Assembly (NCBI GenBank): GCA_028718805.1
Contig: JAQUKY010000001.1
Coordinates: 16,384-80,383, forward strand
Length of the DNA stretch: 64,000 nucleotides
Direction: 5' to 3'
DNA from: Candidatus Nanoarchaeia archaeon
Lineage (GTDB): Archaea > Nanobdellota > Nanobdellia > Pacearchaeales > GW2011-AR1
The notes below the pieces were generated by a model. The model made no database searches. It was not told where the DNA came from and saw nothing but the letters and a program-made list of their open reading frames with translations. Positions within the stretch are counted from its first letter, which is position 1, and every line of letters starts with the position of its first letter. Shown here piece by piece: positions 4,039-56,694 of this stretch. Position numbers and translations under genes: made by a program.

Positions 4039-4998
4039 TCACAAAGGCAAATAATTTAATTTGAGTAACTGGCTGTTTATGACTAATTCATATGAATCAA
4101 TTATATTCCCAAACTTTGATTTCATCTCAGACAAAAAAGAGTTCAGATCATTAATATCTGTGATTGCTACATTGATTTCATAGTCAAAAGAACCAATTTT
4201 TTTTGTAGTGTATATGACATTTTTTTTGTTTGCACACCAACAAATTAAATTATCTTCTTCCTTCAGGGTAGAATTTCTTATTTTTAACATTATGACATAA
4301 TGAAAATAGCCAATCTTGTTCATGTCAGCAATTACTCTGAATGAGCTCACTATTTTTTGTGTCAGATCTTTTACTCTGTGTTTTACCACATCTATTGTAT
4401 AACCTGTTTTTTCAGCCAGTTCTATTAAGGAGATATTTGCTTCCTGAGATAATACTCTAAGTATTTTTTTGTCTTTTTCATCAAGTTTAATTTCTTTATG
4501 ATCTTCTCCATATTTATCAAATTTAACTATTTCCTGTTTTTCTCCAAGAAGCAGTTTGTGCAGCTTAAATATTTTAGAAGAGACTACAATACTTACGAGG
4601 TAGTCATGCAAGATATCCCTGAATTTTGTTTTAACCTCACTTAAAAAAGAGTCTAATTCCCTGATGTTCTGAGATGCAATAACAAATGCATAATCAAATG
4701 AACCTTCTGTTTTAATGAAATTAATCACTTTTTTCTCACTTTTTATAAATTCAATAAACTCTTTTTCTCTTGCTGGAGTCATGGATTTCATCTTGCAATA
4801 AATCTTATGGTTCTTATAGCCAAGTTTTCCTAAGTTGACTGAGCAAATGTAATTAGTTATTATTTTTTCTTTTTCAAGTTTTTTTATCCTGTAGTCCAGC
4901 ACATTTCTTCCTATCCTGAGTTTTTTTGCCATTTTACTTAAAGGAGTCCTGCAGTTAATATCCAGTTCACACAGTATTTTTTTATCTATTAGGTCCAT
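4039..4998 (-). CDS. tandem (two-unit) Lrp/AsnC-fold protein, paralog 1
   Basis: Two AsnC-type HTH segments (LIDKKILCELDINCRTPLSKMAKKLRIGRNVLDYRIKKLEKEKII; LDEKDKKILRVLSQEANISLIELAEKTGYTIDVVKHRVKDL). Each is followed by an effector-type domain (EGSFDY.., IGSFDY..). Divergent from the 5092 operon. Confidence 0.8.
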   Translation of the reverse strand: MDLIDKKILCELDINCRTPLSKMAKKLRIGRNVLDYRIKKLEKEKIITNYICSVNLGKLGYKNHKIYCKMKSMTPAREKEFIEFIKSEKKVINFIKTEGSFDYAFVIASQNIRELDSFLSEVKTKFRDILHDYLVSIVVSSKIFKLHKLLLGEKQEIVKFDKYGEDHKEIKLDEKDKKILRVLSQEANISLIELAEKTGYTIDVVKHRVKDLTQKIVSSFRVIADMNKIGYFHYVIMLKIRNSTLKEEDNLICWCANKKNVIYTTKKIGSFDYEINVAITDINDLNSFLSEMKSKFGNIIDSYELVINSQLLKLNYLPL

Positions 4999-8744: not shown

Positions 8745-9818
8745 ATGGAATTTTGGCAGAGAGTTCACTGGTTTTTTACATCTAAATGCAATGAAAGATG
8801 CAAATTTTGTTTTAAACCTGATTTTGATGAGGGCTCTGCAGATAATGCAAAAACTTTAACAAATATATTAACTAAAAATGATGTTAAAGAAGTTGTTTTT
8901 ACAGGCGGGGAACCTCTTATTTCAAAAAATTTAGATAAGAGTTTAGAGATATTGCGCGATAATAATATTAATACAAGTATTCATACAAATGCAATTTTGC
9001 TGACTTCTGATAGGGTTAGAGATTTAACTTCTTTAGCAGACGAAATAGCAATACCATTAGATAGTATGAATAGAAAAACTCAGGAATATTTAAGAAATGA
9101 AGATTGCCTCAAACAAATTAAAAAAGTTTTTGGGCAATTACAAGATGCTGATGTTAGAATAGGGATACATACTGTTGCTACAGCAATAAACATGAAAGGT
9201 GTTCCTAAAATTTATGATTTTCTCTGCAAAGGAAGATTTGATTATTGGAAGATATATGAGTTTAATCCAAATTTAGTTAAGGATAGGACAAAAAGTGTAA
9301 AAAGATTTTATGAAGTAGAGAAACTTAGTGGAAGACATGCAACAGAGACTGATGGAGGGGTTAGATGTTTGTTTGCTGATTTTTTGTTAATGGAAGAACA
9401 GATGTCCAGATATAAGGACAAAAGAGTAAAATTTGTTGGTTTCAGTGATTATGACAGAGCCCCTTATTTTTTCCTGGATTCTAAAGGAAATGCTTATATG
9501 GCTACCTGGTTTTCCCAGCACAGGAAACCTATTGGAAATTTGCTGAATGAAGGATTCATAAAAGTCAGAGATAGAGCCATTAAAAAATATTCAGAAGGAC
9601 CATTATATGATGAAGATGCTTTTATTGAAACAGAACAAAGCCAGCCTCTTTGGGTCAGGGGTGCCTGGGCTGGAAATTATTTTGATGAAGAATTTGATGA
9701 TCTTGACCCAAAATACCATAATAAATTCAGGCACCTTTCAGAATTATACTTAGACAGGATAAAAAAGCAAGGAGAAGCTCCAAAAGATGCTAAACTTAAT
9801 TATACTATAATTTGTTGA
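8745..9818 (+). CDS. radical SAM enzyme, viperin-like N-terminal signature, no SPASM tail
   Basis: CNERCKFC (CxxxCxxC) and the FTGGEPLI motif. The blocks VHWFFTSKCNERCKFCF, EIAIPLDS, YWKIYEF and YFFLDSKGNAY line up by eye with viperin NYHFTRQCNYKCGFCF, ILAISCDS, RWKVFQ and SYLILDEYMRF. Confidence 0.75.
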   Translation: MEFWQRVHWFFTSKCNERCKFCFKPDFDEGSADNAKTLTNILTKNDVKEVVFTGGEPLISKNLDKSLEILRDNNINTSIHTNAILLTSDRVRDLTSLADEIAIPLDSMNRKTQEYLRNEDCLKQIKKVFGQLQDADVRIGIHTVATAINMKGVPKIYDFLCKGRFDYWKIYEFNPNLVKDRTKSVKRFYEVEKLSGRHATETDGGVRCLFADFLLMEEQMSRYKDKRVKFVGFSDYDRAPYFFLDSKGNAYMATWFSQHRKPIGNLLNEGFIKVRDRAIKKYSEGPLYDEDAFIETEQSQPLWVRGAWAGNYFDEEFDDLDPKYHNKFRHLSELYLDRIKKQGEAPKDAKLNYTIIC

Positions 9819-23909: not shown

Positions 23910-24423
23910 CACTAAGTTTTATAAAAGAGAGTTTGAAAGACTTCTTAAAACAAAAAAAAGGAAGAAGTTTTATATTAAAAATAGCACCTCTCTTTTCAAG
24001 ATTAAAAAGTTTATAAAAAAAGGAGTAGATAGTTTTGAGCTTGCAGGATTTATAAAAAAATCTTCTCAAAATGCAAAAGACTACTGGACAATTGTAATTT
24101 GTTATTATTCTATGCTTTATCTGGCAAAAGCATTAATTTTAACTAAAGATTATGAAACAGATGACCATTATTCTACTCAAATTGCTCTCGGGCATCTCTT
24201 TCTTGAAGATAAGCTAAATCAGCAGGATATTGAAGTATTAAATAAAGCATATCAAACATTTGAGCAGGAATACATAGATTATTTTCATGATGCAAGAAAA
24301 GAAAGTAAGATAAGCAGATATTCCACTACAACAATATATTCTCAAAGAAGAGTTGAAGAAATTTATCATAATTCAAAAAAATTCATAGCTAAATTATTGG
24401 TTTTATTAGAAAAATGGCAGTAG
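23899..24423 (+). CDS. HEPN domain protein (partner of the MNT)
   Basis: Overlaps the MNT gene by 11 nt. All-helical, with an R-x5-H candidate motif (RRVEEIYH) near the C-terminus. Confidence 0.55.
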   Translation: MIFNTKFYKREFERLLKTKKRKKFYIKNSTSLFKIKKFIKKGVDSFELAGFIKKSSQNAKDYWTIVICYYSMLYLAKALILTKDYETDDHYSTQIALGHLFLEDKLNQQDIEVLNKAYQTFEQEYIDYFHDARKESKISRYSTTTIYSQRRVEEIYHNSKKFIAKLLVLLEKWQ

Positions 24424-25385
24424 GAAAGATTAAATTAGACCTAAAAGATAAGAAACTTTTAACTTTACTTGATGAAAATTCAAGATACAGCAATAGCCAG
24501 ATTGCTAAAAAAGTTGGATTAAGCAAACCTGCTGTTGAGTACAGAATTAAAAGATTTGAAAAAAATAATGTAATCTTTAATTTTTATGCTGTTGTTGATT
24601 TCACAAAATTAGGATATTCCCAGTATAAGTTATACATTAAATTTCAGAATACAAATTTGGAAGATGAACAGAAAATAATAGATTATTGGATTAGGACAAA
24701 AAATGTTATGTGGGTTGCTGAAATTAGAGGAAGATGGGATTTAACAGTTTCTATGCTTGCTAAATCAAATTTTGAGTTTGGAAAGATTTTATACGGTTTT
24801 ATGAACAAATTTTCAAAATTTGTCCTTGAAAAAGATGTTCTTTTAACAGAATACTCTCCTATTTATTCAAGAGAGTATTTAACAGAGACAAAGCCAAAGG
24901 AATTTGTTTATGGAATTCCTGAAAAAATTTATGAACTTGATGAAGCAGACATAAAGATATTGCAGGAACTTTCAACAAATGCTAGGATTAATTTTGTTGA
25001 CTTGGCTGAAAAAACAAAATTAACAAGAGATATTATAAATTATAGGATAAAAAAATTAACAGAAAAGGGGATTGTTATTCAATATCGCTGTTATCTTAAT
25101 CTGCAAAATCTGGGGATTAATCATTATAAAGTAATTTTCAGGACAAAAAATCTTGATGAAACAGCTGAAAACAAGATTAAACAATATACGAAGAAGCATA
25201 AAAAAGCAACACAATTCTTAAAATTAATTGGAAGCTGGGATTTGGAGATAGAGTTTGAAACTGAAAATGAAGATGAATTGTACAGAATCTTAACTGAAAT
25301 AAGAAAAGAATTTTCAGATATAATAAGAGATTTTGATATTTTAAGAATAACAAAAAATTATAAATTTAGTTTTTTTCCGTTTTAA
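24414..25385 (+). CDS. tandem (two-unit) Lrp/AsnC-fold protein, paralog 2
   Basis: LDLKDKKLLTLLDENSRYSNSQIAKKVGLSKPAVEYRIKRFEKNNVI and LDEADIKILQELSTNARINFVDLAEKTKLTRDIINYRIKKLTEKGIV, each followed by a G-x-W-D-L type effector domain. Overlaps the HEPN gene by 10 nt. Confidence 0.8.
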   Translation: MAVGKIKLDLKDKKLLTLLDENSRYSNSQIAKKVGLSKPAVEYRIKRFEKNNVIFNFYAVVDFTKLGYSQYKLYIKFQNTNLEDEQKIIDYWIRTKNVMWVAEIRGRWDLTVSMLAKSNFEFGKILYGFMNKFSKFVLEKDVLLTEYSPIYSREYLTETKPKEFVYGIPEKIYELDEADIKILQELSTNARINFVDLAEKTKLTRDIINYRIKKLTEKGIVIQYRCYLNLQNLGINHYKVIFRTKNLDETAENKIKQYTKKHKKATQFLKLIGSWDLEIEFETENEDELYRILTEIRKEFSDIIRDFDILRITKNYKFSFFPF

Positions 25386-43527: not shown

Positions 43528-43956
43528 ATGGAAACAAATAATGAAAAAGCAAGGGAATTGCTTGCACAATTCAAGAACAGAAACTTTGCAAAAATTGAAG
43601 ATGTCAATCCTTTAAATCTGGAATTATTGGCAGTTAGAGATTACGGATCTTGTGACGGACTTTTTGGATTGTTTGGGGATTGTACTTACACTAACAGTTT
43701 TACTGTAGTTAAAAATCCATCAGTAACAGAAACACCTGGCAGAAGATATGTTATAGAAGGAAAATGGACTGACACATTAGTACACCGTAAAACAGAATAT
43801 TCTTTATTAAAAAGAATGTTTGGGAAACCAAAGATAAGGCATGATTACTGGTTAGGTTCTGATATTAATCCAGACCATACTGAATTTGATTATTGTGAGA
43901 TGGCTGATAAAGATAGAGAAGTCATTCCGCTTACTGCTATTTCCCCTTCTCTTTAG
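43528..43956 (+). CDS. hypothetical protein (142 aa)
   Basis: ORF preceded by a GGAGGT Shine-Dalgarno-like sequence. Its 3' end overlaps the topA 3' end by 20 nt (convergent). Confidence 0.45.
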   Translation: METNNEKARELLAQFKNRNFAKIEDVNPLNLELLAVRDYGSCDGLFGLFGDCTYTNSFTVVKNPSVTETPGRRYVIEGKWTDTLVHRKTEYSLLKRMFGKPKIRHDYWLGSDINPDHTEFDYCEMADKDREVIPLTAISPSL

Positions 43957-46237
43957 TATTCCCATTAATATCCAAATCTTTCTTGGATTCACATTTGGGG
44001 TTGGGGCAGAAGACCCATGGGCGCTTGCCCTGCTTTATTCTTAACAGCAATGGCCATTTGCAGTATTCGCAAATTTTGTCTGTCTTTTTGATGAGGGATT
44101 GAGATGGAAGAGGAAAGGTCTGCTTGCAGTTTGGATATTCTGTGCAGGCCAGGAAATAGGATTTAAATCTTGGAGTGTATTTTATTGTTACTTCTCCTTT
44201 TCCACATTTGGGGCATTTAATCCCAAGCTTATTATCTTCTTTTTCCTGCTCAAAAATAGCCTGATTTGCATCATTTAGTTCTTTTCCTATTTCTTTTTCC
44301 TGCTTTTTAAAATCAGTTGAAATTTTTGTCAATGAATCTTCAGCTTTTTTGATTATTGTTTTTTGTTTTTTATCCAGGTCTTTTTTGCTTACCCTTATAG
44401 AATCCATGTCTTTTTCAAAATCTCTTGTTAATTTTTCATCAATTATTATTGGGGAGTGTTTTTCTAAGCTTTCTATTAGCCTCATTCCAAGTTCTGTTGC
44501 TTGTATGGATTTTCCTTTTACATAATTTCTTTGATATAAAGTCTCAATAATATTTGCTCTTGTTGCTTTTGTTCCTAAATTTCTCTTTTCTAATTCTGTT
44601 ATTATTGAAGCTGGAGAATATCTTTTTGGAGGTTGTGTTTCTTTTTCTTCTATTTTTACACTGTCTATTTTTACTTCCCCATTAAAATCTTTTATTTCTC
44701 TTTCTTCCATTTTTGCAGGATAAACATTCATCCAGCCAGCTTCCAATATTTCCATACCTCTTGTATTAAATTTTAAATTGTTAATTTCTGCTTCAACTTT
44801 CTTATTTGCAAGTTTTGCATCTGCACAAAAACAAGAAATAAATCTTTTCATAATCAGGTTATAAACTTTTTCCTCATAGTCTGTCAATTTACTATAAGTT
44901 CCTGTGGGGATTATTGCGGGGTGGGCAGGGTCAGATTTATTTCCTTCAATTGGCTTGCTTCTTGTGACATGTTTTGTTAAATTTGAATAGGATTTGGATA
45001 ATTGTTTTAAAATTTTTTGAGGATTCATTGCTTCGGGTATTTTTTGAGAAGAAGTTCTTGGATAGGATATTAGCCCTCCGAGATATAGTTTTTGAGCAAC
45101 CTGCAATGTATTTGCAGGGGTTATTGAATGAAATTTATATGCTTCTATTTGCAAAGTAGTTAAATCGAAAGGAGCAGGAGGAGTTATTATTTGTTGAGTT
45201 TTTGTTGTATTTGCAATTGCTTTTTTACCTTTTAACTCTTTGAATTTATCTAACTCTTGTTTTTTTATTATATCTTTTATGTGCTTTAATTCTAATTTAT
45301 TCTTCCCATCGTTTATTTCTATAAAAATCTGCCAGTAAGGTGTTGGCTTAAATGCGTTTATTTGTTTTTCTTTATCCACAATTAAATGCAATGCAGGTCC
45401 TTGAACTCTTCCTATTGACATTATCTTGAATTTTCCTGTTGATGAGATTGCATGCATTAGTGCTCTTGAAAGGTTTATGCCATATAACCAGTCTAAGAAG
45501 TGACGTGTCTCTCCTGCAATTGCCTGCCCCCATTCTATTGTAGGATGAACGTTATCATAAGAATTTTGCAGTTCATCTGCAGTTAATGAACTAAATTTCA
45601 TTCTTTTTGCATCATTTCTGTTTGCAATAAACCTTACAATATTATAACCAATAACCTCTCCTTCAATATCAAAATCTGTCGCAACTATGATTTCAGAGGC
45701 GTTTTTAGAAAGTTTTTGGATTGCAGTATAATAACTCTTGGTAAAATCTCTTTTCCTGACTTCAAAATTTGGCTTCCATCCTATGTCAAAGACAGGATAT
45801 CCTTTTTGTTTCTGGGTCTGGCTTACTGAAAATAAATGGCCTACTGCACATGCAACAATTATTTTTTTATTGTTTCTTTCCAGTTCATAATAATAAACTC
45901 CCTTTCCGCTAGAAACTCTTTTGTCTTTTCCTTCTGATAGTGCTGCTGCAATTTTTGATGCTGCCTGGGGTTTTTCTGTTATTATTAAGATGTAATTGCC
46001 CTTGCCTGGTTTTGTTTTTAATTTTGTTTCTGATGATTCTGACTTTAATTTTTTCTCTTTTGTTTTCTTAACTCTTTCTTTCTTTAGCTTTTTTCCAGGT
46101 TTTTCAATTTTTTCCAGCTCTTCTATTGAAGGTCTTGGTTTTACAGCTACCTCTACTGTTTGCTTTATTGTTTCAGGATTAAAAACCCTGAATTCTTTTT
46201 GTTCTATTATACTATGGTTTATTTTCCTTTTTGGCAT
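43937..46237 (-). CDS. topA: DNA topoisomerase, type IA
   Basis: TOPRIM (YILIITEKPQAA; ATDFDIEGE), active-site Tyr motif (LISYPRTSS) and C-terminal CxxC zinc ribbons (CPKCGKG, CEYCKWP). Confidence 0.85.
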   Translation of the reverse strand: MPKRKINHSIIEQKEFRVFNPETIKQTVEVAVKPRPSIEELEKIEKPGKKLKKERVKKTKEKKLKSESSETKLKTKPGKGNYILIITEKPQAASKIAAALSEGKDKRVSSGKGVYYYELERNNKKIIVACAVGHLFSVSQTQKQKGYPVFDIGWKPNFEVRKRDFTKSYYTAIQKLSKNASEIIVATDFDIEGEVIGYNIVRFIANRNDAKRMKFSSLTADELQNSYDNVHPTIEWGQAIAGETRHFLDWLYGINLSRALMHAISSTGKFKIMSIGRVQGPALHLIVDKEKQINAFKPTPYWQIFIEINDGKNKLELKHIKDIIKKQELDKFKELKGKKAIANTTKTQQIITPPAPFDLTTLQIEAYKFHSITPANTLQVAQKLYLGGLISYPRTSSQKIPEAMNPQKILKQLSKSYSNLTKHVTRSKPIEGNKSDPAHPAIIPTGTYSKLTDYEEKVYNLIMKRFISCFCADAKLANKKVEAEINNLKFNTRGMEILEAGWMNVYPAKMEEREIKDFNGEVKIDSVKIEEKETQPPKRYSPASIITELEKRNLGTKATRANIIETLYQRNYVKGKSIQATELGMRLIESLEKHSPIIIDEKLTRDFEKDMDSIRVSKKDLDKKQKTIIKKAEDSLTKISTDFKKQEKEIGKELNDANQAIFEQEKEDNKLGIKCPKCGKGEVTIKYTPRFKSYFLACTEYPNCKQTFPLPSQSLIKKTDKICEYCKWPLLLRIKQGKRPWVFCPNPKCESKKDLDINGNTKEKGK

Positions 46238-47300: not shown

Positions 47301-47819
47301 ATGCCTTATTATAATGTAAGCGATGATAAAGAAGGGGAATGTGAGGTTTGCAAAACAACTTACATAAAAGAGGTTTGGGATTCGTTTGGGAGCAACCCTA
47401 ATGATTGGGGCTACCAATTTGAAAATTGTCCGACTTGTTTATATAACCCCCAATTAAAGAGGGATATTTCTGAACTTATTGGGATTGGGGTTCGTGCCGA
47501 TATTGTTGATGGAAAAATCAAATATAATTGCAGAGAATTATCTGAGATGGTTAAAGATGAGGTGATCAGGCATATTCAGAATCTTGAAAATAAAAATGAA
47601 AGAAGATGGCATGAGTTACTATACCATTCTTCTTTACAACTTCCTGAGATGTTGAATAAAAATACGAGGGGAACTTTTAGTTCTTTCGGAAATCTTGAAT
47701 TTAATACGCAAGAGCTTTCTGATTTAGTTAATCAGAAAATTATAGAACTTTGGGGTAGATATGGAGCAAGTGAAGAAAAATGGTTGAAACAGGAGGTCAA
47801 AAGTGGATATATAAAATGA
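47301..47819 (+). CDS. hypothetical zinc-ribbon protein (172 aa)
   Basis: CEVCKTT ... CPTCLYN at the N-terminus. Its stop overlaps the next ATG (ATGA). Confidence 0.45.
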   Translation: MPYYNVSDDKEGECEVCKTTYIKEVWDSFGSNPNDWGYQFENCPTCLYNPQLKRDISELIGIGVRADIVDGKIKYNCRELSEMVKDEVIRHIQNLENKNERRWHELLYHSSLQLPEMLNKNTRGTFSSFGNLEFNTQELSDLVNQKIIELWGRYGASEEKWLKQEVKSGYIK

Positions 47820-48325
47820 AGGTTGTAATAACAGGAGGCCCATGTTCGGGAAAAACAACCCTTATTAATGAGTTAAAGAAAAGAGGATATTATTGTTTAG
47901 ATGAGGTTGCAAGAGAGATTTTAACTGAGAATAAGAATATAAGTTTTCTGGAATTGCAGGAAGAAGTTTTTAAAAAACAAATTCAAAAAGAGAATAATAT
48001 TAATGGAGAACTTGTTTTTTTAGACAGAGGATTGGTTGATAATTATGTTTATTATTCTCAGAGCAATAACTTCCCCGATTATATAAAAAATTTTGAATAT
48101 AAGGGGAGATATGACAAGATTCTCTTCCTTGAGAGATTCCAATTTGAAAATGATGGATTAAGAATAGAAAAAGATGAAAAGGAAGCCGGAGAGATTCATG
48201 ATAAGATAAGGCACACTTATTCTAATTTTGGTTATAATCTCTTGGAAGTTCCAAGAATGGATGTTGGTAAGAGGGCGGATTTTATCTTGTTTCATATTAA
48301 AGACTTGAAAGGGGGTGGGAATTAG
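47816..48325 (+). CDS. P-loop ATPase/kinase (AAA_28 / NadR-kinase-like, predicted ATPase family)
   Basis: MKVVITGGPCSGKTTLINEL, FLDRGLVDNYVY and a C-terminal GY-x-LLEVP pattern. Start set at ATG 47816. Confidence 0.6.
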   Translation: MKVVITGGPCSGKTTLINELKKRGYYCLDEVAREILTENKNISFLELQEEVFKKQIQKENNINGELVFLDRGLVDNYVYYSQSNNFPDYIKNFEYKGRYDKILFLERFQFENDGLRIEKDEKEAGEIHDKIRHTYSNFGYNLLEVPRMDVGKRADFILFHIKDLKGGGN

Positions 48326-48326
48326 A

Positions 48327-49343
48327 ATGGGTGGATGTTACGGAGGAAGTTACGGATACAGTAGTTGTTCAAAACCTAAAAAGGTAAGAAAAGCTCCAAA
48401 CCCTAAGTGGAAGGTTAAATTGAAAGAGTTTGCAAAAGACAATGATCTTGAAGACTTAGTTTCAGCTTACAAGTCTTTTTTCAGGACAAGGACAAAAGGA
48501 GGTTTTTTTGGTAAATTAGCAGAAGCTTGCAAAATAGAAACTGTTAATGATATCCCAAAAGAATTTTCTGAAACTGAATATGAAGTAAAGTTCGATATTG
48601 AACCATATGGGAAGGGTACAGAGCCTTCTGTGGTTCAGTATCTTAATGCATTTGATTTTCCAGTGAGTTCCGGGACAAGATTCCTGAAAGATCCTGTTAA
48701 TCATTTTGCAGAGGGTATCAATCATTTTATAGGAGACGAACTTGATGAAAGACTGGTTGTCATTGAAAAATGCGGGAAAACTTATCTTAAGGAAAAAGGA
48801 TTAGTTGAGCCTGTTAATACTGGAGTTCCTTTTGAGCATGTTGTGATAAAGAGAAGTGAGTCTAGGTATTCTGCAGGAATGGAAGAGATTATCTCTAAAA
48901 CAAAACAGGTTACAGATGAGCCCGGTGTTGAATACAAGGGCAAGATAAGGAAAGAGAAAGGGGATGCTTTTATCTTAGATACAAATGACGGAAGGATTTA
49001 TTCTATGACAATCACAAGAGCTCATTTGACAAAAGCAGGAGAAAAAAAGGAATCTGATATACAGAGACAGCTTGAACTTGAATATGCAGGATATGTTCCT
49101 GGATTTAAGGGTTTTGAAAAAGATTCTGAAAGGCAAATAGTCCAAGGGATGGTTGACCTTGCTAAATACACTGCTATTATGTATAATAATGCACCAATTA
49201 CAGATGGTTGGAGAATGAATCTTCAGATAACAGGCGAGAGAAAATATGATTTTGTTATTGGAAAACAAGATCATATTCTTGGAGCTGGCATGACTAAAGT
49301 GCCTATTCCTTCAATGGCTTTAACTGCTGAAAATGCAAAATAA
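48327..49343 (+). CDS. hypothetical protein, possible CYTH/triphosphate-tunnel-like beta-barrel
   Basis: ATG lies 1 nt after the upstream stop and is preceded by GGGGGTGGG. E-x-E-x-K (TEYEVKFDI) and later alternating charged strands (VIKRSESRY, KGKIRKEKG, RQLELEY). The fold assignment is a guess. Confidence 0.5.
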   Translation: MGGCYGGSYGYSSCSKPKKVRKAPNPKWKVKLKEFAKDNDLEDLVSAYKSFFRTRTKGGFFGKLAEACKIETVNDIPKEFSETEYEVKFDIEPYGKGTEPSVVQYLNAFDFPVSSGTRFLKDPVNHFAEGINHFIGDELDERLVVIEKCGKTYLKEKGLVEPVNTGVPFEHVVIKRSESRYSAGMEEIISKTKQVTDEPGVEYKGKIRKEKGDAFILDTNDGRIYSMTITRAHLTKAGEKKESDIQRQLELEYAGYVPGFKGFEKDSERQIVQGMVDLAKYTAIMYNNAPITDGWRMNLQITGERKYDFVIGKQDHILGAGMTKVPIPSMALTAENAK

Positions 49344-49947
49344 TTTATTTTTTTTGTGCGGACCGCACGGCTCTGGAAAAACAACACTTGCAAGTTTGCT
49401 TGCAGAAAAAGAGAATGTGTTGGTTCCAGAGCTTTTTTCTCGAACAATCAAGCTTAATACTGACCCTAAGGACAGGCTTGTACTCAAAATCTGCCAGAGA
49501 AGCCTTGAAAATTTTGAATATCTTGAAACAGCAAGGAGAAATCCGGATAAGATTGTTCTTGGAAACAGGTGCATTTATGACCAGCTGACCTATAATCTTG
49601 TTTATGCATATAGGGGATGGCTGGACAAGAATAAAGTAGAAAAATATAATCTTCTTTCAGAGAATCTTTATATCAATAGTCTGAAAGAGCCTTTTGCAAT
49701 AGTGTTAAACCCGGGATTTGATGTTGTTAAAAAACATCTTGAGAAGAGATGGCAGGAAAAAGGAAAAAAATGGAGAGAAGATGACTGGGAATATGACAGA
49801 TTAGCATGTGATGTTTACGAACAGTTTAAAGATAATGAAAAAATCTTTTATATTAATCATGAAATTGATTTAAATTCCGGAGATGAAATAAGCCGGGTAT
49901 ACGAGTGGATGAAGGAAATCAAGGAAGGAGTTCCTGTTTTTGCTTAG
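49333..49947 (+). CDS. P-loop NTPase / nucleoside(-tide) kinase-like protein
   Basis: FFLCGPHGSGKTTLASLLA Walker A and a kinase-sized 204 aa. Overlaps the upstream gene by 11 nt. Confidence 0.5.
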   Translation: MQNNLFFLCGPHGSGKTTLASLLAEKENVLVPELFSRTIKLNTDPKDRLVLKICQRSLENFEYLETARRNPDKIVLGNRCIYDQLTYNLVYAYRGWLDKNKVEKYNLLSENLYINSLKEPFAIVLNPGFDVVKKHLEKRWQEKGKKWREDDWEYDRLACDVYEQFKDNEKIFYINHEIDLNSGDEISRVYEWMKEIKEGVPVFA

Positions 49948-50709: not shown

Positions 50710-51330
50710 TTAAATCTCAATTATCTTTCCTTTCTTGCCAACAGAAATTACTCTTGTTTTCCCTATTTTTTCGTTTAATCCCTCTGCTTCATGAATATGG
50801 CCTGAAATAAACAAATCGGGCTGAAATTTTTCAATTGCTTTTCTTATGGCCTTGCTTCCTGGAAATCCTGAAAATTCTGCTTTTGTTCTTGCAGCATGCA
50901 TATGGCTGACCATTATCTTCTTTTCCAAATCCTTGATTTTTTCAAAGTCTTTTTCCAGTTTTTTAAATGCATTACCCTCGTTTAATTTCAGCTGCCAGTC
51001 TTCATTGCCCACCCCAAAAATTCCAACATTGTCATACTTGACATAGTGTTTTCCAATATTTTTTATGCCATATAACCTTGAGATAGTTTCTGTGGCTTCT
51101 GTTGTATCCCAGTTTCCAGGAACAAAAACAACCCTCTTGTTTTTCTGGAGAAACGGCTTTATTAAATTTTCAGTTTCAATCAATCCCGTTATATCTCCTG
51201 TCAGGACAACCAGATCAACATTTTCTTTTTCAGCTTTTTCAGCTAATCTTTTTGATGCAGACGAATCTCCATGAAAATCCCCTGCTGCGAGAATCTTGAA
51301 TTTCTTTTGTTTGTTTATCTGGTTTTTCAT
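50710..51330 (-). CDS. calcineurin-like metallophosphoesterase (YfcE/MJ0936-like)
   Basis: ILAAGDFHGD, VVLTGDITG, VPGNWD and SGHIHE motifs in canonical order. Confidence 0.75.
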   Translation of the reverse strand: MKNQINKQKKFKILAAGDFHGDSSASKRLAEKAEKENVDLVVLTGDITGLIETENLIKPFLQKNKRVVFVPGNWDTTEATETISRLYGIKNIGKHYVKYDNVGIFGVGNEDWQLKLNEGNAFKKLEKDFEKIKDLEKKIMVSHMHAARTKAEFSGFPGSKAIRKAIEKFQPDLFISGHIHEAEGLNEKIGKTRVISVGKKGKIIEI

Positions 51331-51913: not shown

Positions 51914-52366
51914 TTATCCTGCGAGGATTTTAACAGCAGCACATATTTTTTCTTTATCAGACATGTTGTACTTATATTCATACACCTCTTTAAGAATTTC
52001 TTTGGATTCTTCTGGTTTTATGCCGTGTGTTGCTGATTCAAATCGTTTTTTTAGCTGTTCTACTTCCAAACCATGAAAAAGATAAGAAGTTTTCTCTTCA
52101 CCTTCTTTTAATAAATCTTCAATATCATTTCCAAGAGGCCTAATATATGCATAAACTTTTTTTGAATCAGTAAAAGGCAAGGATTTTTTTTGAGAATCTC
52201 TTTTTACACTTAAATCTATAACTGAGCAGTCTTCTATATCCAAAGCAATTACTTCTAAGTTCCCTATTCCATCTAATTCTGGCTCTGTTTTTAAAATTGG
52301 TGTCTCTTGTTTATCTTCTGTTTTAGCATATTTTTGTTCTATCATCTTTAAAATTTTACATATCAA
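51914..52366 (-). CDS. hypothetical protein (150 aa), last gene of the HD / radical SAM / kinase operon
   Basis: Overlaps the kinase gene by 11 nt. No motif recognised. Confidence 0.5.
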   Translation of the reverse strand: MICKILKMIEQKYAKTEDKQETPILKTEPELDGIGNLEVIALDIEDCSVIDLSVKRDSQKKSLPFTDSKKVYAYIRPLGNDIEDLLKEGEEKTSYLFHGLEVEQLKKRFESATHGIKPEESKEILKEVYEYKYNMSDKEKICAAVKILAG

Positions 52367-52952
52367 GAGTTTTTAAGTTTTTATAGACAAAAATTTCTAG
52401 CGCTTTAGATGATTGTTCTGCTGTTTTATTTGTAGTATCTATCTTTGTTTTATAGCCATTGAATTTTGTGTATAAATCTAAATATTTATTTTCTCTTGAA
52501 ATTATCAGATGAGGATTTTTTGAGAGGATTTTGTGATATTTATTATCTGAACTTTTACTAAGTCTTTTGATTATTTCTTCTAAAGATGCATGAAAGTATA
52601 CCAGTGCATCTGGTTTGATTATAAATGGTTTGAAAATTTTTGCTATTAATTTATTATACTCTCTTTCTGCAGTCGGGTAGGATAAAATGGAAAGGTCATA
52701 TCTGTCCTGCAATATTATCTTATTTTGCTTTAAATTTGGTTTTATTATCCTGTATTGAATATACATCAACTCCAGCAAAAATAACAAAGTTGATGGAAAT
52801 TTTCTTGCTAATTTGCCTATAAAAGTATCTGAACCAATTCCTTTGCTGTATATATAGTCATTATTCTCTTTGTTATTGCTTAATAGCTGTTTAATTGTTG
52901 TTGTTTTACCTGTTCCATCTAATCCTTCGCATATAATTAAAAGTCCTTTCAT
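52356..52952 (-). CDS. thymidylate kinase-family P-loop protein
   Basis: LIICEGLDGTGKTTT (the EG-DG-GK-T motif of dTMP kinases) and QDRYDLSILSY (DRY..S..Y). Its ATG overlaps the upstream TGA (ATGA). Confidence 0.65.
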   Translation of the reverse strand: MKGLLIICEGLDGTGKTTTIKQLLSNNKENNDYIYSKGIGSDTFIGKLARKFPSTLLFLLELMYIQYRIIKPNLKQNKIILQDRYDLSILSYPTAEREYNKLIAKIFKPFIIKPDALVYFHASLEEIIKRLSKSSDNKYHKILSKNPHLIISRENKYLDLYTKFNGYKTKIDTTNKTAEQSSKALEIFVYKNLKTLDM

Positions 52953-53968
52953 TTTACATCCCCTAATTCAAATTTTCTTAGAGGGCATACAAAACCATAT
53001 TTTTTACAATCATAATTTTTTATATCAAATGCATTTTTAAAATTAACACAGTATCCTCCAAATCCTTTAAATAGTTGAGATAAATCTTTCCAGTATTTGT
53101 TCCATAATTCTGTATTATTCCAAATATCTTTGACAGAGCATTTGTGCAGGTTTGCAAGAGGTTTGTTATAAGAAGCTAAGATTGCGCATGGATATACATT
53201 TCCATCAGGCAAAATCTGAAGGTGACTTTTTTCTTTATTTGCAATGCATCCTAAATTAGGATTCCATTTTTCTTTTTCTATTAAAGGGAATTCAATAGAG
53301 ATTCTCATTCCTTTATTCTGATATTTTTTTAATTTTTCTCTGATAAATTTTAGCCATTTTAGTGGTTCAACAGCTAATTCTTTGCTTTTGTTACCTCTTC
53401 CTATTGGAGTAAAGTAATAGATTCCTTGTTCATCTGCTTTTAAATTCAAGGCTAACTCAGTTATGTTTGAAATATCTTCTAAATTACAAGAAAAAACAGT
53501 AGTGTTTATTTTAGTATAAAATCCTGTTTTTTTTGATTCTTTTATATTTTCTATTACTCTTTCAAAAGTTTCTTTATCTTTTCTTCTTATTTTATTATAA
53601 ATTTCTGCATTTGACCCATCTAAGCTAATTGCTATTGCATCTAAACCCAGCTCTTTAAATTTTCTTAATTTTTCTTTTGTAAGCAGTGAGCCATTGGTGA
53701 CCAGTTCAATCTTGTAATCTAATCTTTTCCCTAATTTGATGATTTCTTCAACATCATCTCTTACTAATGGTTCGCCGCCGGTTATATCAAATCTTTTTCC
53801 TCCAAGTTCTTTTGTGTCTGTTAAAATTTTTTCTAATTCCTTTAGATTAAGTTCTGGCATTTTTGTTATCCCAGAATCAAAAGCGCAATGAGTGCACCTA
53901 AAATTACATCTGTTAGTTATGTTTAAGTCTAGTTTTGGTAGTGTTCTATTTTCCATTTTTTTCTCCAT
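52949..53968 (-). CDS. radical SAM enzyme (second of a pair), C-terminal Cys-containing auxiliary region
   Basis: LNITNRCNFRCTHC (CxxxCxxC), ITGGEPLV and C-terminal cysteines (LGCIANKE, VYPCAIL, GGYCVNF, YDCKKYGFVCP). Start set at the internal ATG 53968; the track ORF extends to 54010. Confidence 0.7.
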   Translation of the reverse strand: MEKKMENRTLPKLDLNITNRCNFRCTHCAFDSGITKMPELNLKELEKILTDTKELGGKRFDITGGEPLVRDDVEEIIKLGKRLDYKIELVTNGSLLTKEKLRKFKELGLDAIAISLDGSNAEIYNKIRRKDKETFERVIENIKESKKTGFYTKINTTVFSCNLEDISNITELALNLKADEQGIYYFTPIGRGNKSKELAVEPLKWLKFIREKLKKYQNKGMRISIEFPLIEKEKWNPNLGCIANKEKSHLQILPDGNVYPCAILASYNKPLANLHKCSVKDIWNNTELWNKYWKDLSQLFKGFGGYCVNFKNAFDIKNYDCKKYGFVCPLRKFELGDVK

Positions 53969-55013
53969 TAACGGGTATGTATAATGTGCAAAGATACAGC
54001 TCATGCACATTCCAGTTCTTTTCGAGGTCTTTTTTTACTTCGGGTTTTTTTGTTTTTGGATTAAGCCAGCATAAAGGGTCTGGGCCATTAAAATGTCCAT
54101 AAGCCAGATAAGAAGCTCCTGCATCTCCTCCCTTGCAATGATAGTATGCATTGCAGGATTTACATTTTTCATTTGGGTGTCTGTCTCTTATTCTTTTAAA
54201 AATATCAGAATTCATTATTTTTTCTACAGACTGATATTTTATGTTTCCTCCGGATTCTGATAGAAAAACTGAAGGACTTACTTCTCCATTAGGCTGTATT
54301 CTAAATGCAGTGAAACCTGAAGGATCCCCTGGAGAATAATAAGTTCCTCCAAAAGCTGCTCTGAAAACAGGCTCTGGTGTCAAAATTCCTTTTCTTTTAA
54401 ACTGGTTTAAATAAGTATATGATTTTTTGAGGTCTTTTTTTGAAAGAGCTAAGATTTTCTCATTTTCTATTCCTCTGCCATTTGCCCTGAATCTATTGAG
54501 TCTCCATGAGTCAACATTTAATTTATCAGCTAAATTATACAATTTTTGTAATTCTTGTTCAGAACAATTAAGTTTTGTCAAGCAAGTTACCATTTCATTG
54601 TCAATTCCTTTTTTCACTAAAACTTCCAGAGCATGAATTGCTTTGTTGAAAGTTCCGTTTCTTCCTCTAAACTGGTCATGTTTTTCTGCATCTGCAAAAT
54701 CAATGCTAACTCCAATATCATGAAAAAGGTTTAGATGGTCTTTTATTCTGTCAAAAGTAGTTCCATTTGTAGTATAAGATATTGCTATTCCTTTATTTTT
54801 AATATATCTGCATAAGTCAATGAAGTCTGGCCTTAGAGCACATTCTCCTCCTCCAAAATTAATTGCAATTACTCCTGATTTTTTTAGTTTATCCACCACC
54901 TTAAAACATTCTTTAAGGTTTAATTCATCAGGGCTTCTTTTTCCAGAAGCATTGTAACAATGAGCACAATTGAGATTGCATGCATTTGTTAAAGACCAGC
55001 CTGCGACTAACAT
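53946..55013 (-). CDS. radical SAM enzyme with SPASM-like C-terminal domain (NirJ/AhbC/AhbD/PqqE-like class)
   Basis: WSLTNACNLNCAHC (CxxxCxxC), NFGGGECAL and C-terminal CKSCNAYYHCKGGDAGASYL...GPDPLCW. Its ATG overlaps the HD gene stop by 7 nt. Confidence 0.75.
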   Translation of the reverse strand: MLVAGWSLTNACNLNCAHCYNASGKRSPDELNLKECFKVVDKLKKSGVIAINFGGGECALRPDFIDLCRYIKNKGIAISYTTNGTTFDRIKDHLNLFHDIGVSIDFADAEKHDQFRGRNGTFNKAIHALEVLVKKGIDNEMVTCLTKLNCSEQELQKLYNLADKLNVDSWRLNRFRANGRGIENEKILALSKKDLKKSYTYLNQFKRKGILTPEPVFRAAFGGTYYSPGDPSGFTAFRIQPNGEVSPSVFLSESGGNIKYQSVEKIMNSDIFKRIRDRHPNEKCKSCNAYYHCKGGDAGASYLAYGHFNGPDPLCWLNPKTKKPEVKKDLEKNWNVHELYLCTLYIPVNGEKNGK

Positions 55014-55603
55014 CTTTGAACCTCCTCAATTTTTCTGATTAATTTCTGAATATTTTCTTTTTCCTTTTTTTCTCTTAATCTTTTTGCAGGTTCTGTGTAA
55101 TATTTGTGATTAGAAATAAACTGGAATGTTTTTTCATACCAGCTTGCATTATCAGGCAAGCCTAGTTCATTTCTGAAGTTATTGCCTTTTTCAAAGAAAT
55201 CTTCTCTTCCAAAATTGTCCAAATCTGCATCACAGATAATTTTTTCAAGCAGGTTCAATGGTCTTTGAGGAAGTTTTGTAGCCAGAATCATCCCTTTAAT
55301 CTTGTTTATCTGTTCTTTAGAGTAATCTAATCCAGAGAGATATGTTCTTGCAAATTCCATACTTTTTTCTTCATTATCCTGAGCAAAAGGAACATAGATA
55401 ATATCATGAAGAAGCACTGCACTTTCCAGTAAAAACTGGTCTTCTTCATTTAAGTTATTTAAAGGTCCATATTTTTTTGCAACAGAATAAACATCCATGA
55501 CATGTTCAAAATTATGATATGGAAGATTAGGCATTGTCCTTTTGGCAACTTCCTTAACTTGAATCAGCTTAGCCTGATTATCTGTGTATGTTTTCTTTTC
55601 CAT
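55007..55603 (-). CDS. HD-superfamily metal-dependent phosphohydrolase (paralog of 6251-6979)
   Basis: PYHNFEHVMDV ... AVLLHDIIYVPFAQDNEEKSMEFARTYL ... ICDADLDNFG aligns block for block with the 6251 protein. Confidence 0.65.
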   Translation of the reverse strand: MEKKTYTDNQAKLIQVKEVAKRTMPNLPYHNFEHVMDVYSVAKKYGPLNNLNEEDQFLLESAVLLHDIIYVPFAQDNEEKSMEFARTYLSGLDYSKEQINKIKGMILATKLPQRPLNLLEKIICDADLDNFGREDFFEKGNNFRNELGLPDNASWYEKTFQFISNHKYYTEPAKRLREKKEKENIQKLIRKIEEVQRC

Positions 55604-55695
55604 ACTTATTATAAGATATGGTTATATAAGAAATATTTTACCTAAAAATACGCATTTTCCGTAATATTTATAAATAATGTTAGTTTTATCCTAAT

Positions 55696-56694
55696 ATGAG
55701 ATGCCTTCAGCAAAAACAAGATACTAAAGAAATAAAACTTGACGTGAAAGATATAAAAATACTTGCTTTACTGAGCAATAATGCCCGAATTCCTTTGACT
55801 CAGCTTTCTAAGAAAGTGGCTTTATCAAGAGATGCAGTTGATTACAGAATTAAAAATTATGAAAAAAGTGGATTAATACAAGGATACAGAACAATAATTA
55901 ATGTGGCAGAATTTGGGTATAATAATTATCATTTATTTATCAAATTAAATAATCCTTCAGAAGAAATTGAAAAAAGGATTTTAAGCAGATTAATAAAACA
56001 TGATTTTATAAGAGCAATACTAAAATTCAGTGGAGGATTTGATTTTGAAATTGCGATAATTGCAAAAGATTTAGAAGAGCTGGATAAAAGAATAGAAAAT
56101 ATAACAAGAGATTGTTCTGGTTTTGTTCAGGATTATGAAATTCTTACATTTAGCAAGTTTTATGCTTCAAGAACTCTGCCAAAAAGTTTTTCAAATATTA
56201 TAGAAGACTTGGAGATTAAAAAAAAGCAGTATAAAATAGATAAAAAAGACATTGAAATTCTAAAGTTAATAAGTGAAAATGCCTTGCTTCCATTATATGA
56301 GATAGGAAATAAGATTAAGCTTAGTGCAGATGCAATATCTTACAGGATAAAGAAGATGAGGGAATCTAAAATTATTAACAAATTTATTCCCGTAGTAGAT
56401 TATAGCTTATTAGGATATAATGTTTTTGTTGTTTTATTTGATATTAATTCATTAAATGAAGAAAGAGGAAAAAAGCTTGGTGAGTTTTTTATTCATGATA
56501 ATAATACCATTTGGGCAGTTAAAACAATTGGCAAGTTTAATGTTCTTGTTTATTTTCTTGTTAAAAACATTGATGATTTGCAGAAAAGCATATCAAAACT
56601 AAGAAGCATGTTCCCTGGTGAAGTAAGGAATCATAATGTGCTGATAGCTTATGAAGAATACAAATTTACTTATTTTCCTCCAGGTTTATTCTGA
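55696..56694 (+). CDS. tandem (two-unit) Lrp/AsnC-fold protein, paralog 3
   Basis: LDVKDIKILALLSNNARIPLTQLSKKVALSRDAVDYRIKNYEKSGLI and IDKKDIEILKLISENALLPLYEIGNKIKLSADAISYRIKKMRESKII, each followed by an effector-type domain (SGGFDFEIAI, IGKFNVLVYF). Divergent from the HD / radical SAM operon. Confidence 0.8.
   Translation: MRCLQQKQDTKEIKLDVKDIKILALLSNNARIPLTQLSKKVALSRDAVDYRIKNYEKSGLIQGYRTIINVAEFGYNNYHLFIKLNNPSEEIEKRILSRLIKHDFIRAILKFSGGFDFEIAIIAKDLEELDKRIENITRDCSGFVQDYEILTFSKFYASRTLPKSFSNIIEDLEIKKKQYKIDKKDIEILKLISENALLPLYEIGNKIKLSADAISYRIKKMRESKIINKFIPVVDYSLLGYNVFVVLFDINSLNEERGKKLGEFFIHDNNTIWAVKTIGKFNVLVYFLVKNIDDLQKSISKLRSMFPGEVRNHNVLIAYEEYKFTYFPPGLF

Follow-up and report, generated by a model that had tools for sequence, protein, structure and literature searches.

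What is the function of a compact set of genes which combines an HD-domain phosphohydrolase, two radical S-adenosylmethionine (SAM) enzymes and a kinase of the thymidylate kinase (Tmk) family, and which lies back to back with a gene for a fused, two-unit Lrp/AsnC protein? The question arises from a stretch of 64,000 nucleotides of Candidatus Nanoarchaeia archaeon (assembly GCA_028718805.1, contig JAQUKY010000001.1, positions 16,384 to 80,383 of the forward strand), hereafter called the window, in which an earlier note had described a five-gene operon and had considered an alternative-haem or haem d1 locus, a nucleotide-analogue system and a peptide maturation system as possible readings. The explanation favoured here, which receives about half of our confidence, is that of a self-contained, regulated biosynthetic operon, widespread in DPANN archaea, whose core would tailor a nucleotide by an undescribed pathway.

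A module conserved across DPANN archaea

The five successive minus-strand open reading frames (ORFs) of the earlier note, their motifs and the divergent tandem AsnC/Lrp gene were all recovered by an ORF check and Pfam searches (Table 1). By protein look-up, orthologues of the first radical SAM enzyme (rSAM1) were found in more than 120 clusters, at 53-86 % identity, in Nanoarchaeota, Pacearchaeota and Woesearchaeota, and the distribution of the second enzyme (rSAM2) matches that of rSAM1; the rSAM1 of the window is itself 100 % identical to MDD5191883.1. A scan with the family-specific C-terminus of rSAM1 yielded 59 orthologous metagenome loci, to which further loci were added via protein look-up (L numbers hereafter), and all were annotated with the window proteins, each count taking only the loci whose contig covers the position concerned. 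In this way, rSAM2 was found 3' of rSAM1 in 44 of 46 loci, the Tmk-like gene in 32 of 36, the HD gene 5' of rSAM1 in 30 of 39, and an orthologue of the divergent tandem AsnC gene in 28 of 34. All-against-all clustering of the neighbouring ORFs returned these five families as the sole recurring ones, the remaining neighbourhood being variable and mostly of housekeeping nature, with aminoacyl-tRNA synthetases, aRF1, EF-G, EF-1alpha and S10. The gene order is kept among rSAM1 orthologues down to about 50 % identity, and the idea that it is conserved nowhere, named in the earlier note as what would speak for chance adjacency, clearly fails.

The orthologues of rSAM1 score 350-710 bits, compared to 100-176 bits for the closest paralogues. 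Patterns derived from the full rSAM1 alignment correspond to generic radical SAM motifs and, among the matches listed from the scan of species-representative genomes with this alignment, only paralogues of at most 37 % identity were present; these served as a negative control, and no HD, Tmk or AsnC neighbours were found at the paralogue loci. The association of the genes is far beyond chance. The conserved module consists of the HD, rSAM1, rSAM2 and Tmk-like kinase genes and is completed by the divergent tandem Lrp/AsnC gene, as the earlier note had supposed for a real, linked cluster.

The operon had been described as a five-gene unit, but its conserved part comprises four genes. The fifth, an ORFan, stands outside the conserved unit because its sole match in a search of 5.8 billion proteins is itself and because it is without counterpart in any of the 59 related loci. 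In addition, it has no Pfam, NCBIfam or PADLOC match, and the slot 3' of the Tmk-like gene is filled by differing genes in other lineages. The ORFan is lineage-specific and is probably co-transcribed with the operon. The overlaps of 7 nt between HD and rSAM1 and of 4 nt between rSAM2 and Tmk, as given in the earlier note, are confirmed exactly. The overlap between rSAM1 and rSAM2, which had been left at 11 to 65 nt, is settled at 11 nt since the rSAM2 orthologues begin at 'ME-NR..LPKLDL' in their alignment, thereby designating ATG 53956 as the start. As for the ORFan, the 11-nt overlap with the Tmk-like gene holds only with TTG 52366; with ATG 52345, the start chosen by gene callers in L001/L002, a gap of 10 nt separates the two genes. 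The start/stop overlaps between the module genes imply translational coupling. The G+C content is about 31 % all along, with no compositional island.

In line with the earlier note, which could name no described system of this composition, the gene combination is undescribed and none of its proteins is placed in a characterised equivalog family: the NCBIfam equivalog models are all missed, and the literature searched holds no account of the cluster, only analogies (oxetanocin/albucidin, cordycepin and reviews of cyclodipeptide synthases).

The divergent regulator and its putative operator

The tandem protein matches the NCBIfam models LysM, AsnC and LrpA with 91, 83 and 80 bits, respectively. 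With the AsnC-fold decarboxylases of the alternative haem pathway, in comparison, it scores 32.2 bits for AhbA (cut-off 140) and 25.7 bits for AhbB (cut-off 125), in the HTH region only. Pfam recognises two HTH_AsnC-type stretches, and AsnC_trans_reg reaches 22.8 bits in unit 1, just under its threshold of 25. A profile built from 15 orthologues aligns full-length to LrpA/FL11 (positions 10-144), with 74 bits for LrpA (1i1g), 65 bits for FL11/PH1519 and 23 bits for the NirD-like 4ch7, which comes last of 28 matches. On this comparison, the tandem protein is predicted to be the transcription regulator of the module rather than an enzyme of the AhbA/B type. The orthologue beside the operon scores 250-445 bits in most loci, versus 26-184 bits for paralogues of the same locus. 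Two more tandem AsnC/Lrp genes, encoding proteins of about 320 aa, are located in the window at 4039-4998 (minus strand) and 24414-25385 (plus strand), so that fused double Lrp regulators form a multi-copy family in this genome; tandem AsnC/Lrp paralogues also occur in L003, L110 and L143.

The intergenic region of 92 nt between the regulator and HD genes stands out by a conservation far above that of the flanking proteins (35-50 % identity) and displays 19 invariant columns over 16 loci. In the alignment of these 16 regions, a 21-nt element is near-invariant between two divergent TATA boxes, for which a promoter function is proposed on the basis of the archaeal TATA consensus and spacing. The best match to this element in the window is the intergenic site, with 1 mismatch, and six further matches have 2. 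With a position weight matrix built from the 16 sites, the top hit of the whole locus was intergenic in 9 of 14 held-out loci, where about 0.3 % per locus is expected by chance, and the intergenic scores amount to 15-27 bits versus 7-16 for the runner-up. The element may be regarded as the putative operator of the tandem Lrp regulator, which would bind it between two divergent leaderless promoters and thereby control both its own gene and the operon. This regulator-operator pair offers a tractable experimental entry point, the effector being expected to be a metabolite of the pathway.

The enzymes and the variant loci

The HD protein displays a complete H...HD...D signature, with H34, H66-D67 and D125 invariant in 15 orthologues, and scores 32.7 bits for Pfam HD (gathering threshold 22). 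Its profile matches 2pq7, 3djb, 5dqv (YpgQ), 2qgs and 3gw7 (YedJ), YpgQ being an NTP pyrophosphohydrolase. The kinase scores 62 bits for Pfam Thymidylate_kin (threshold 27), and its profile matches genuine Tmks with 66 bits; with 74.4 bits, it remains under the cut-off of 83.25 of the dTMP-kinase equivalog TIGR00041. The window kinase possesses an EGLDGTGKTT P-loop and QDRYDLS, and EGxDxxGK(T/S) and QDR(Y/W) are kept across 39 module kinases. In Tmk structures, thymine is recognised by Phe-x3-Arg in helix 3. Alignment to PfTMPK ('LLFSANRWEH') and to the E. coli enzyme ('MFYAARVQLV') places F-x-x-E-L-x-Y of the module kinases opposite this F-x-x-x-R, the Arg being replaced by Leu and preceded, one position before, by a conserved Glu. 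The alignments thus predict a kinase with intact catalytic motifs whose base pocket departs from that of dTMP kinases.

The two radical SAM enzymes are 26 % identical to each other. Besides its CNLNCAHC motif, rSAM1 has five invariant cysteines (C284, C287, C293, C315 and C342), which leaves the seven-Cys SPASM motif, the ligand set of two auxiliary [4Fe-4S] clusters, incomplete in the window enzyme. GCPCG, SPCVY and GGCAG of the deep branches correspond to GDPSG, SPSVF and GGDAG in the window-type enzyme, and most rSAM1 members are, as in the window, of the GDPSG/GGDAG type. The C-terminus of rSAM1 is SPASM-derived, with probably one auxiliary cluster, the other having apparently been lost within the family. 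In L138-L144, rSAM1 keeps GGCAG yet is found in the same module, the gene set being unchanged by the Cys loss. The replacement of Cys ligands between the window enzyme and P0112/P0119/P0120 and L138-L144 resembles a natural loss of an auxiliary cluster. Arg residues of rSAM1 are also conserved, in the stretch WRLNRFRxNGRG. As for rSAM2, it combines CNFRCTHC with four invariant C-terminal cysteines spaced C-x19-C-x45-C-x20-C, a pattern suggestive of a single twitch-type auxiliary cluster.

None of the NCBIfam equivalog cut-offs is reached by rSAM1 or rSAM2. The best match of rSAM1 is the mycofactocin maturase MftC, at 177.5 bits for a cut-off of 265. NirJ2 reaches 150 and AhbD 132 bits, both for a cut-off of 500, and the AhbC/AhbD/NirJ models as a whole give 86-150 bits for cut-offs of 500-650. 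The MoaA models give 69-122 bits (111-122 for rSAM2) for cut-offs of 231-325, PqqE 77-122 for 381 and AlbA 81 for 850. Finally, the viperin model NF038283 (viperin_w_prok) gives 69.6 bits with rSAM1 and 99.4 bits with rSAM2 for a cut-off of 180, covering the radical SAM core. The best matches of rSAM2 among PDB sequences are MoaA, in first place, GDGT-MAS and BlsE. The AlphaFold2 model of rSAM1 (mean predicted local distance difference test score, pLDDT, 79.9) retrieved BlsE first in Foldseek, along with SkfB, SuiB, anSME and viperins at TM-scores of 0.55-0.67, while that of rSAM2 (pLDDT 88.3) retrieved PqqE, BlsE in second place, MoaA, SkfB and SuiB.

Several loci depart from the layout of the window. 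On a bacterial contig (GCA_964450195.1) which also encodes EF-P, DnaN, HU and FtsH, the HD and rSAM1 proteins are fused into a single polypeptide of 550 aa (P0074, L005:4360-6012), followed by rSAM2; a divergent TrmB-type regulator takes the place of Lrp, and no Tmk-like gene is adjacent. This fusion implies both a transfer of the module between domains of life and a physical partnership of HD and rSAM1. In deep branches (L004, L135, L146/147 and L150), a variant termed type B is composed of an rSAM1 with full SPASM domain, a B12-binding radical SAM enzyme and a Tmk-like kinase, the B12-binding protein being an orthologous, TIGR03960-like enzyme that replaces rSAM2. A MutT-type NUDIX protein replaces HD in L135, L146 and L150, whereas L004 keeps HD, with an inorganic pyrophosphatase gene adjoining. 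L146/147 and L150 add an amidohydrolase of the TRZ/ATZ type (purine or nucleoside deaminase family) and a UbiE-type methyltransferase. The L150 cluster abuts FolE2, QueE, QueC, QueD, a RaSEA-like radical SAM enzyme and an ArcS-like fragment; a link to 7-deazaguanine or archaeosine, which recurs in no other locus, was rejected and is kept only as a lead. In L138, L141 and L144, genes for NrdR and for a class II-type ribonucleotide reductase (RNR) with TSCPD domain follow downstream of the module at a distance of 1-2 kb, and in L110 a lone RNR gene adjoins it. In L130/L132, rSAM1 lies within a tailoring-type cluster, together with a PfkB kinase, two B12-dependent radical SAM enzymes, another radical SAM enzyme, an Asn-synthase-like protein and a glycosyltransferase. 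In a marine lineage without HD, the Tmk-like gene is followed by a fusion of 586 aa (L148:10960-12720) between AP_endonuc_2, a xylose-isomerase-like TIM barrel, and an AAA_33 kinase, and then by a protein with DUF362 and 4Fe-4S ferredoxin domains; a weaker relative of this fusion comes after Tmk in L143.

In 8 loci covering the whole divergence range, a gene resembling those of cyclodipeptide synthases (CDPS), encoding 263-289 aa, stands between rSAM1 and rSAM2, its boundaries overlapping with theirs. The PDB matches of its profile are cyclodipeptide synthases only (E 1e-7 to 2e-4). PF16715 matches 6 of 7 members at E up to 1 (best 4e-5); the single reported score is 18.3 bits for a gathering threshold of 27, and two members have no Pfam match at E 1e-3. 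In an alignment with 9gun, the invariant S36 of 'GIS..YPFF' falls within 'GISINHPYF', 'Y-x-x-x-D/E' on 'YVLEEV' and K-Y-E on a Tyr, and these Ser, Tyr, Glu and Tyr residues are taken to be catalytic from what is known of AlbC. Neither the window nor the fetched flanks of the other loci (up to 10 kb on each side) contain the gene. According to a review of 2014, CDPS were then unknown in archaea. The related loci seem to contain archaeal cyclodipeptide synthases embedded between two radical SAM enzymes, an arrangement that appears to be new to the literature searched.

Around the operon itself, PADLOC detected no defence island among the window neighbours, only weak candidates there and generic matches of the module proteins to prokaryotic viperin (pVip) and VakA models, and no module relatives were found in a scan of viral contigs. 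A 766-aa helicase-like protein (43937-46237, minus strand) matches DpdF with 109 bits in its N-terminal region only, and a 206-aa calcineurin-like metallophosphoesterase (50710-51330, minus strand) matches the candidate defence model PDC-S10 with 53 bits; both matches probably reflect generic domain similarity. Some 2 kb away from the operon lies a group of plus-strand genes (47301-49947), four in number and closely packed or overlapping, whose products are a Cys-rich protein of 172 aa, a P-loop kinase-like protein of the AAA_28 type (181 aa), a protein of unknown nature (342 aa) and a deoxynucleoside-kinase-like protein (204 aa). They may constitute a nucleoside-salvage set, which recurred only in L001/L002, themselves further assemblies of this genome or of a near-identical one. 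The window also has a third radical SAM gene (8745-9818, plus strand), which encodes 357 aa with Radical_SAM and Fer4_12 domains, has no SPASM match and is unrelated to the operon.

Table 1. Coordinates of the module in the window and of gene clusters in related loci (window positions unless a locus is given)
Feature	Position	Strand	Description
HD phosphohydrolase, stand-alone	55007..55603	-	198 aa; YpgQ/YedJ-like; Pfam HD
rSAM1, degenerate SPASM domain	53946..55013	-	355 aa; Radical_SAM + SPASM (Pfam); constant core enzyme of the family
rSAM2, twitch-like C-terminal domain	52949..53956	-	335 aa from ATG 53956; Radical_SAM + partial SPASM
Tmk-family P-loop nucleotide kinase, predicted altered base pocket	52356..52952	-	198 aa; Thymidylate_kin
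ORFan	51914..52366	-	143 aa (ATG 52345) or 150 aa (TTG 52366)
Tandem two-unit Lrp/AsnC regulator (predicted)	55696..56694	+	332 aa; 2x HTH_AsnC; 92 nt from HD gene, opposite strand
TATA-like box ATTTATAAA (+ strand)	55666..55674	+	about 22 nt before regulator ATG; putative leaderless promoter
Putative operator TTACGGAAAATGCGTATTTTT, consensus TTTCGGAAAAnnCGnAATTTT	55644..55664	-	imperfect GAAAA-N5-7-TTTTC inverted repeat between divergent TATA boxes
TATA-like box TTTCTTATATAA	55622..55633	-	about 20 nt before HD start codon; putative operon promoter; conserved block 'AAAATCTTTCTTATAT'
CDPS-like gene	L091:3363-4187		
CDPS-like gene	L096:2896-3651		
CDPS-like gene	L097:391-1182		
CDPS-like gene	L103:10374-11162		
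CDPS-like gene	L124:5579-6394		
CDPS-like gene	L137:419-1219		
CDPS-like gene	L140:10297-11166		
CDPS-like gene	L142:330-1148		
Type B cluster	L146:8001-13760		
Type B cluster	L150:151-13023		
RNR neighbourhood	L138:8905-11915		
RNR neighbourhood	L141:12777-17017		
RNR neighbourhood	L144:12128-14831		
RNR neighbourhood	L110:5615-7612		

What the module may make

In the explanation favoured here, the HD enzyme, together with rSAM1, would take a phosphate or pyrophosphate off a nucleoside tri- or diphosphate or off the phosphorylated product. By analogy to BlsE, DesII, BtrN, MoaA and viperin, rSAM1 and rSAM2 would act on the sugar or base in two consecutive radical steps, each enzyme with one auxiliary Fe-S cluster as an electron conduit, and the Tmk-family kinase would phosphorylate the substrate or product in its monophosphate form. 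In some lineages, the CDPS-like enzyme may add an aminoacyl-tRNA-derived unit, while the B12-dependent radical SAM enzyme, the methyltransferase and the purine-type amidohydrolase of the deep branches may diversify the chemistry. On the joint commitment that HD and rSAM1 act together, that rSAM2 catalyses a second radical step and that the kinase works on a non-thymine monophosphate, all in the service of nucleotide tailoring, our judgement is about evenly poised.

Of the three readings in the earlier note, the one that saw in a kinase, radical SAM enzymes and a phosphohydrolase the logic of nucleotide chemistry is the best supported, by the HD-rSAM1 fusion, the NUDIX variants, the pyrophosphatase and the RNR neighbours. 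More precisely, a nucleotide substrate is favoured because the P-loop and DRY motifs of the Tmk-family kinase are intact and the HD protein is of the YpgQ/YedJ-like group; because HD is fused to rSAM1 in one locus, displaced by NUDIX in others and accompanied by a pyrophosphatase in L004; because a PfkB kinase occurs in L130/L132 and RNR genes are neighbours (with NrdR in 3 of 4 loci); and because the closest solved relatives of the radical SAM enzymes include BlsE, MoaA, viperin and DesII. The displacement of HD by NUDIX, two unrelated families of nucleotide pyrophosphohydrolases, is the strongest single argument. The general logic is that of known nucleotide-modifying radical SAM systems. 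The cordycepin pathway comprises a kinase, an HD protein and an oxidoreductase, NUDIX proteins are found in the puromycin (Pur7) and tubercidin (TubG) pathways, and viperins associated with kinases offer a precedent for the combination of phosphate handling and radical chemistry.

Two comparisons help to delimit the proposal. In oxetanocin A biosynthesis, the HD protein OxsA acts with the radical SAM enzyme OxsB on dAMP/dADP/dATP (PMC7074753). The likeness resides in a small stand-alone HD protein paired with a radical SAM enzyme, the two acting jointly on phosphorylated nucleosides in the oxetanocin case and being adjacent or fused here, and in the B12-dependent partner enzyme of the type B variants, which recalls OxsB. 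However, no sequence relationship to OxsA/OxsB is detectable, the HD profile matching 2pq7, 3djb and YpgQ instead, and the module has two radical SAM enzymes with auxiliary clusters rather than one B12-dependent enzyme, besides a Tmk-like kinase and an Lrp regulator; moreover, the oxetanocin cluster is a plasmid-borne antibiotic cluster, whereas the present one is chromosomal and widely conserved in archaea. With BlsE, DesII, BtrN and MoaA, the two enzymes share a partial TIM-barrel radical SAM core and a C-terminal auxiliary Fe-S domain, but at only 14-25 % identity and TM-scores of 0.55-0.72, and the Cys spacing of rSAM2 differs from the three-Cys motif of MoaA.

Several observations weigh against this reading. 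The individual steps are proposed from sequence comparison and analogy, as is a nucleotide for the substrate. The neighbours recovered by the fold searches for both enzymes, DesII among them, are non-specific SPASM/twitch proteins within that same range of TM-scores; SPASM enzymes mostly modify peptides, and a peptide maturase, MftC, is the top, albeit sub-threshold, NCBIfam match of rSAM1. The kinase is lacking in 4 of 36 loci and HD in 9 of 39, so that neither is strictly obligatory in cis, and the association with RNR is restricted to two independent sub-lineages. Finally, the CDPS-like insertion and the Lrp-type regulator fit an amino-acid- or peptide-derived substrate equally well, Lrp-type regulators usually responding to amino acids.

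These last points lead to the rival that survives best, namely peptide or cyclodipeptide tailoring, which we nevertheless consider rather unlikely. The radical SAM enzymes would cross-link or modify an aminoacyl-tRNA-derived peptide, with the kinase and HD protein in ancillary roles (activation, self-protection), and the cyclodipeptide would be made by the CDPS-like enzyme of the operon in some lineages and be encoded elsewhere or come from outside in others. Besides the nature of the regulator, the CDPS-like gene with its aligned GIS...PYF Ser, Y...E and Tyr between the two radical SAM genes, and the presence of the peptide maturases MftC, PqqE, SkfB, SuiB and AlbA among the best NCBIfam or fold neighbours, argue in its favour. 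On the other hand, the CDPS-like gene occurs in only 8 of about 46 loci, while the Tmk-like kinase and HD/NUDIX proteins are far more constant and are not known to take part in cyclodipeptide pathways; both the fusion of HD with rSAM1 and the displacement of HD by NUDIX speak for a nucleotide. Radical SAM genes do figure among the listed neighbours of CDPS genes (PMC4159871), and the coupling of nucleobases to cyclodipeptides is known (PMC11610984). The 8 loci resemble CDPS clusters in that a gene with the catalytic Ser motif stands beside enzymes of the tailoring type, but differ from them in that this gene is optional and scores below the Pfam gathering threshold, and in that a kinase and HD/NUDIX proteins are not CDPS tailoring enzymes. 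The earlier note had envisaged peptide maturation while seeing no precursor: the absence of a ribosomal one stands, since the search for conserved small ORFs detected no short ORF conserved in more than 4 loci as precursor of a ribosomally synthesised and post-translationally modified peptide, the single 4-locus 'family' being translated operator DNA, whereas the CDPS-like gene provides a non-ribosomal source in 8 loci. An aminoacyl or peptide component could therefore be either a decoration, as in a peptidyl-nucleoside-like product, or the true substrate.

A more ambitious version of the nucleotide reading, to which only a small part of our confidence goes, is that of a core DPANN pathway in which the two radical SAM enzymes would make an otherwise unobtainable nucleotide, shared horizontally with at least one bacterium and placed under metabolite-sensing Lrp control. 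Such a product could be, for example, a canonical DNA precursor obtained independently of folate, or a new modified nucleotide or cofactor on which these symbionts depend.

A viperin-like, antiviral or antagonistic role appears improbable. The kinase would supply an NTP, from which the radical SAM enzymes would make a toxic or chain-terminating analogue, with HD in maturation or protection. The juxtaposition of a radical SAM enzyme and a nucleotide-monophosphate kinase is indeed shared with pVips, PADLOC pVip models match both radical SAM enzymes (84-113 bits) and VakA matches the kinase (31 bits), viperins are among the structural neighbours, and the L130 variant, with its extra B12-dependent radical SAM enzymes, Asn-synthase-like protein and glycosyltransferase, resembles a natural-product cluster. 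Nevertheless, both enzymes score below the viperin equivalog cut-off and carry auxiliary-cluster domains (5 and 4 invariant Cys), which viperins do not have; the module contains two such enzymes and HD; its synteny is stable, its inheritance looks vertical and its flanks are housekeeping genes; the neighbours are not defence genes and no homologue was found in the viral contigs; and a dedicated Lrp-type regulator together with a deeply conserved operator is what one expects of a metabolic operon. The defence version of the nucleotide reading, which the earlier note had linked to prokaryotic viperins, is thus not supported. The flanks, an identity of 53-86 %, which is high for DPANN, and the lack of a viral copy and of a defence island give the module a housekeeping flavour. 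Between a metabolite for the cell's own needs, such as a modified nucleotide or cofactor, and a nucleoside analogue made for export or against viruses, we lean slightly towards the former.

Such a housekeeping role might in principle be a step of deoxynucleoside triphosphate supply, for instance a folate-independent, radical SAM-based thymidylate synthesis in which HD would convert dUTP/dCTP to dUMP, the radical SAM enzymes would methylate it and Tmk would yield dTDP; this we deem very improbable. The order HD-rSAM-rSAM-Tmk, which would follow that of the pathway, exactly brackets the thymidylate synthase step, an RNR gene is adjacent in four loci and NrdR in three, and the B12-dependent enzyme that replaces rSAM2 in type B belongs to a class dominated by methyltransferases. 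A motif scan of the 64-kb window revealed no convincing ThyA/ThyX, its one RHR...S match, in an unrelated 305-aa ORF, being spurious, an absence that is not generalisable from 64 kb. Nucleotide biosynthesis is minimal in Woesearchaeota (PMC8421398). However, the kinase is without the thymine-contacting Arg and below the dTMP-kinase cut-off, rSAM1 and rSAM2 fall in no known methylase class, and the CDPS-like and other accessory genes do not fit. As to the tetrapyrrole reading of the earlier note, in which the tandem AsnC protein would be an AhbA/B- or NirDL-like decarboxylase and the radical SAM enzymes AhbC/AhbD/NirJ, it is effectively refuted, for its appeal lies in a superficial likeness of layout, with two NirJ/AhbD-like SPASM genes beside an AsnC-fold tandem protein, and in NirJ2 and AhbD being among the higher-ranking, sub-threshold NCBIfam matches, whereas all the relevant cut-offs are missed widely, the tandem protein is closest to the DNA-binding LrpA/FL11 with NirD-like proteins weakest and faces a conserved operator, no tetrapyrrole gene is annotated among the neighbours, be it in the window or across the more than 60 loci, and HD and the kinase, foreign to that pathway, are left unexplained.

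Coming back to nucleotide tailoring, its significance stems from the economy of the organisms concerned. DPANN genomes are of about 1 Mb and contain few biosynthetic genes, and a four-enzyme operon with two costly radical SAM enzymes, preserved at 50-90 % identity in an unvarying gene order together with a regulator and putative operator of its own, must consequently matter to them. If the product is a nucleotide analogue, the module would represent a new branch of radical nucleotide chemistry beside viperin, oxetanocin and MoaA, and possibly the source of a bioactive nucleoside not seen before; a housekeeping product would instead fill a gap in how these symbionts obtain their DNA or cofactor precursors.

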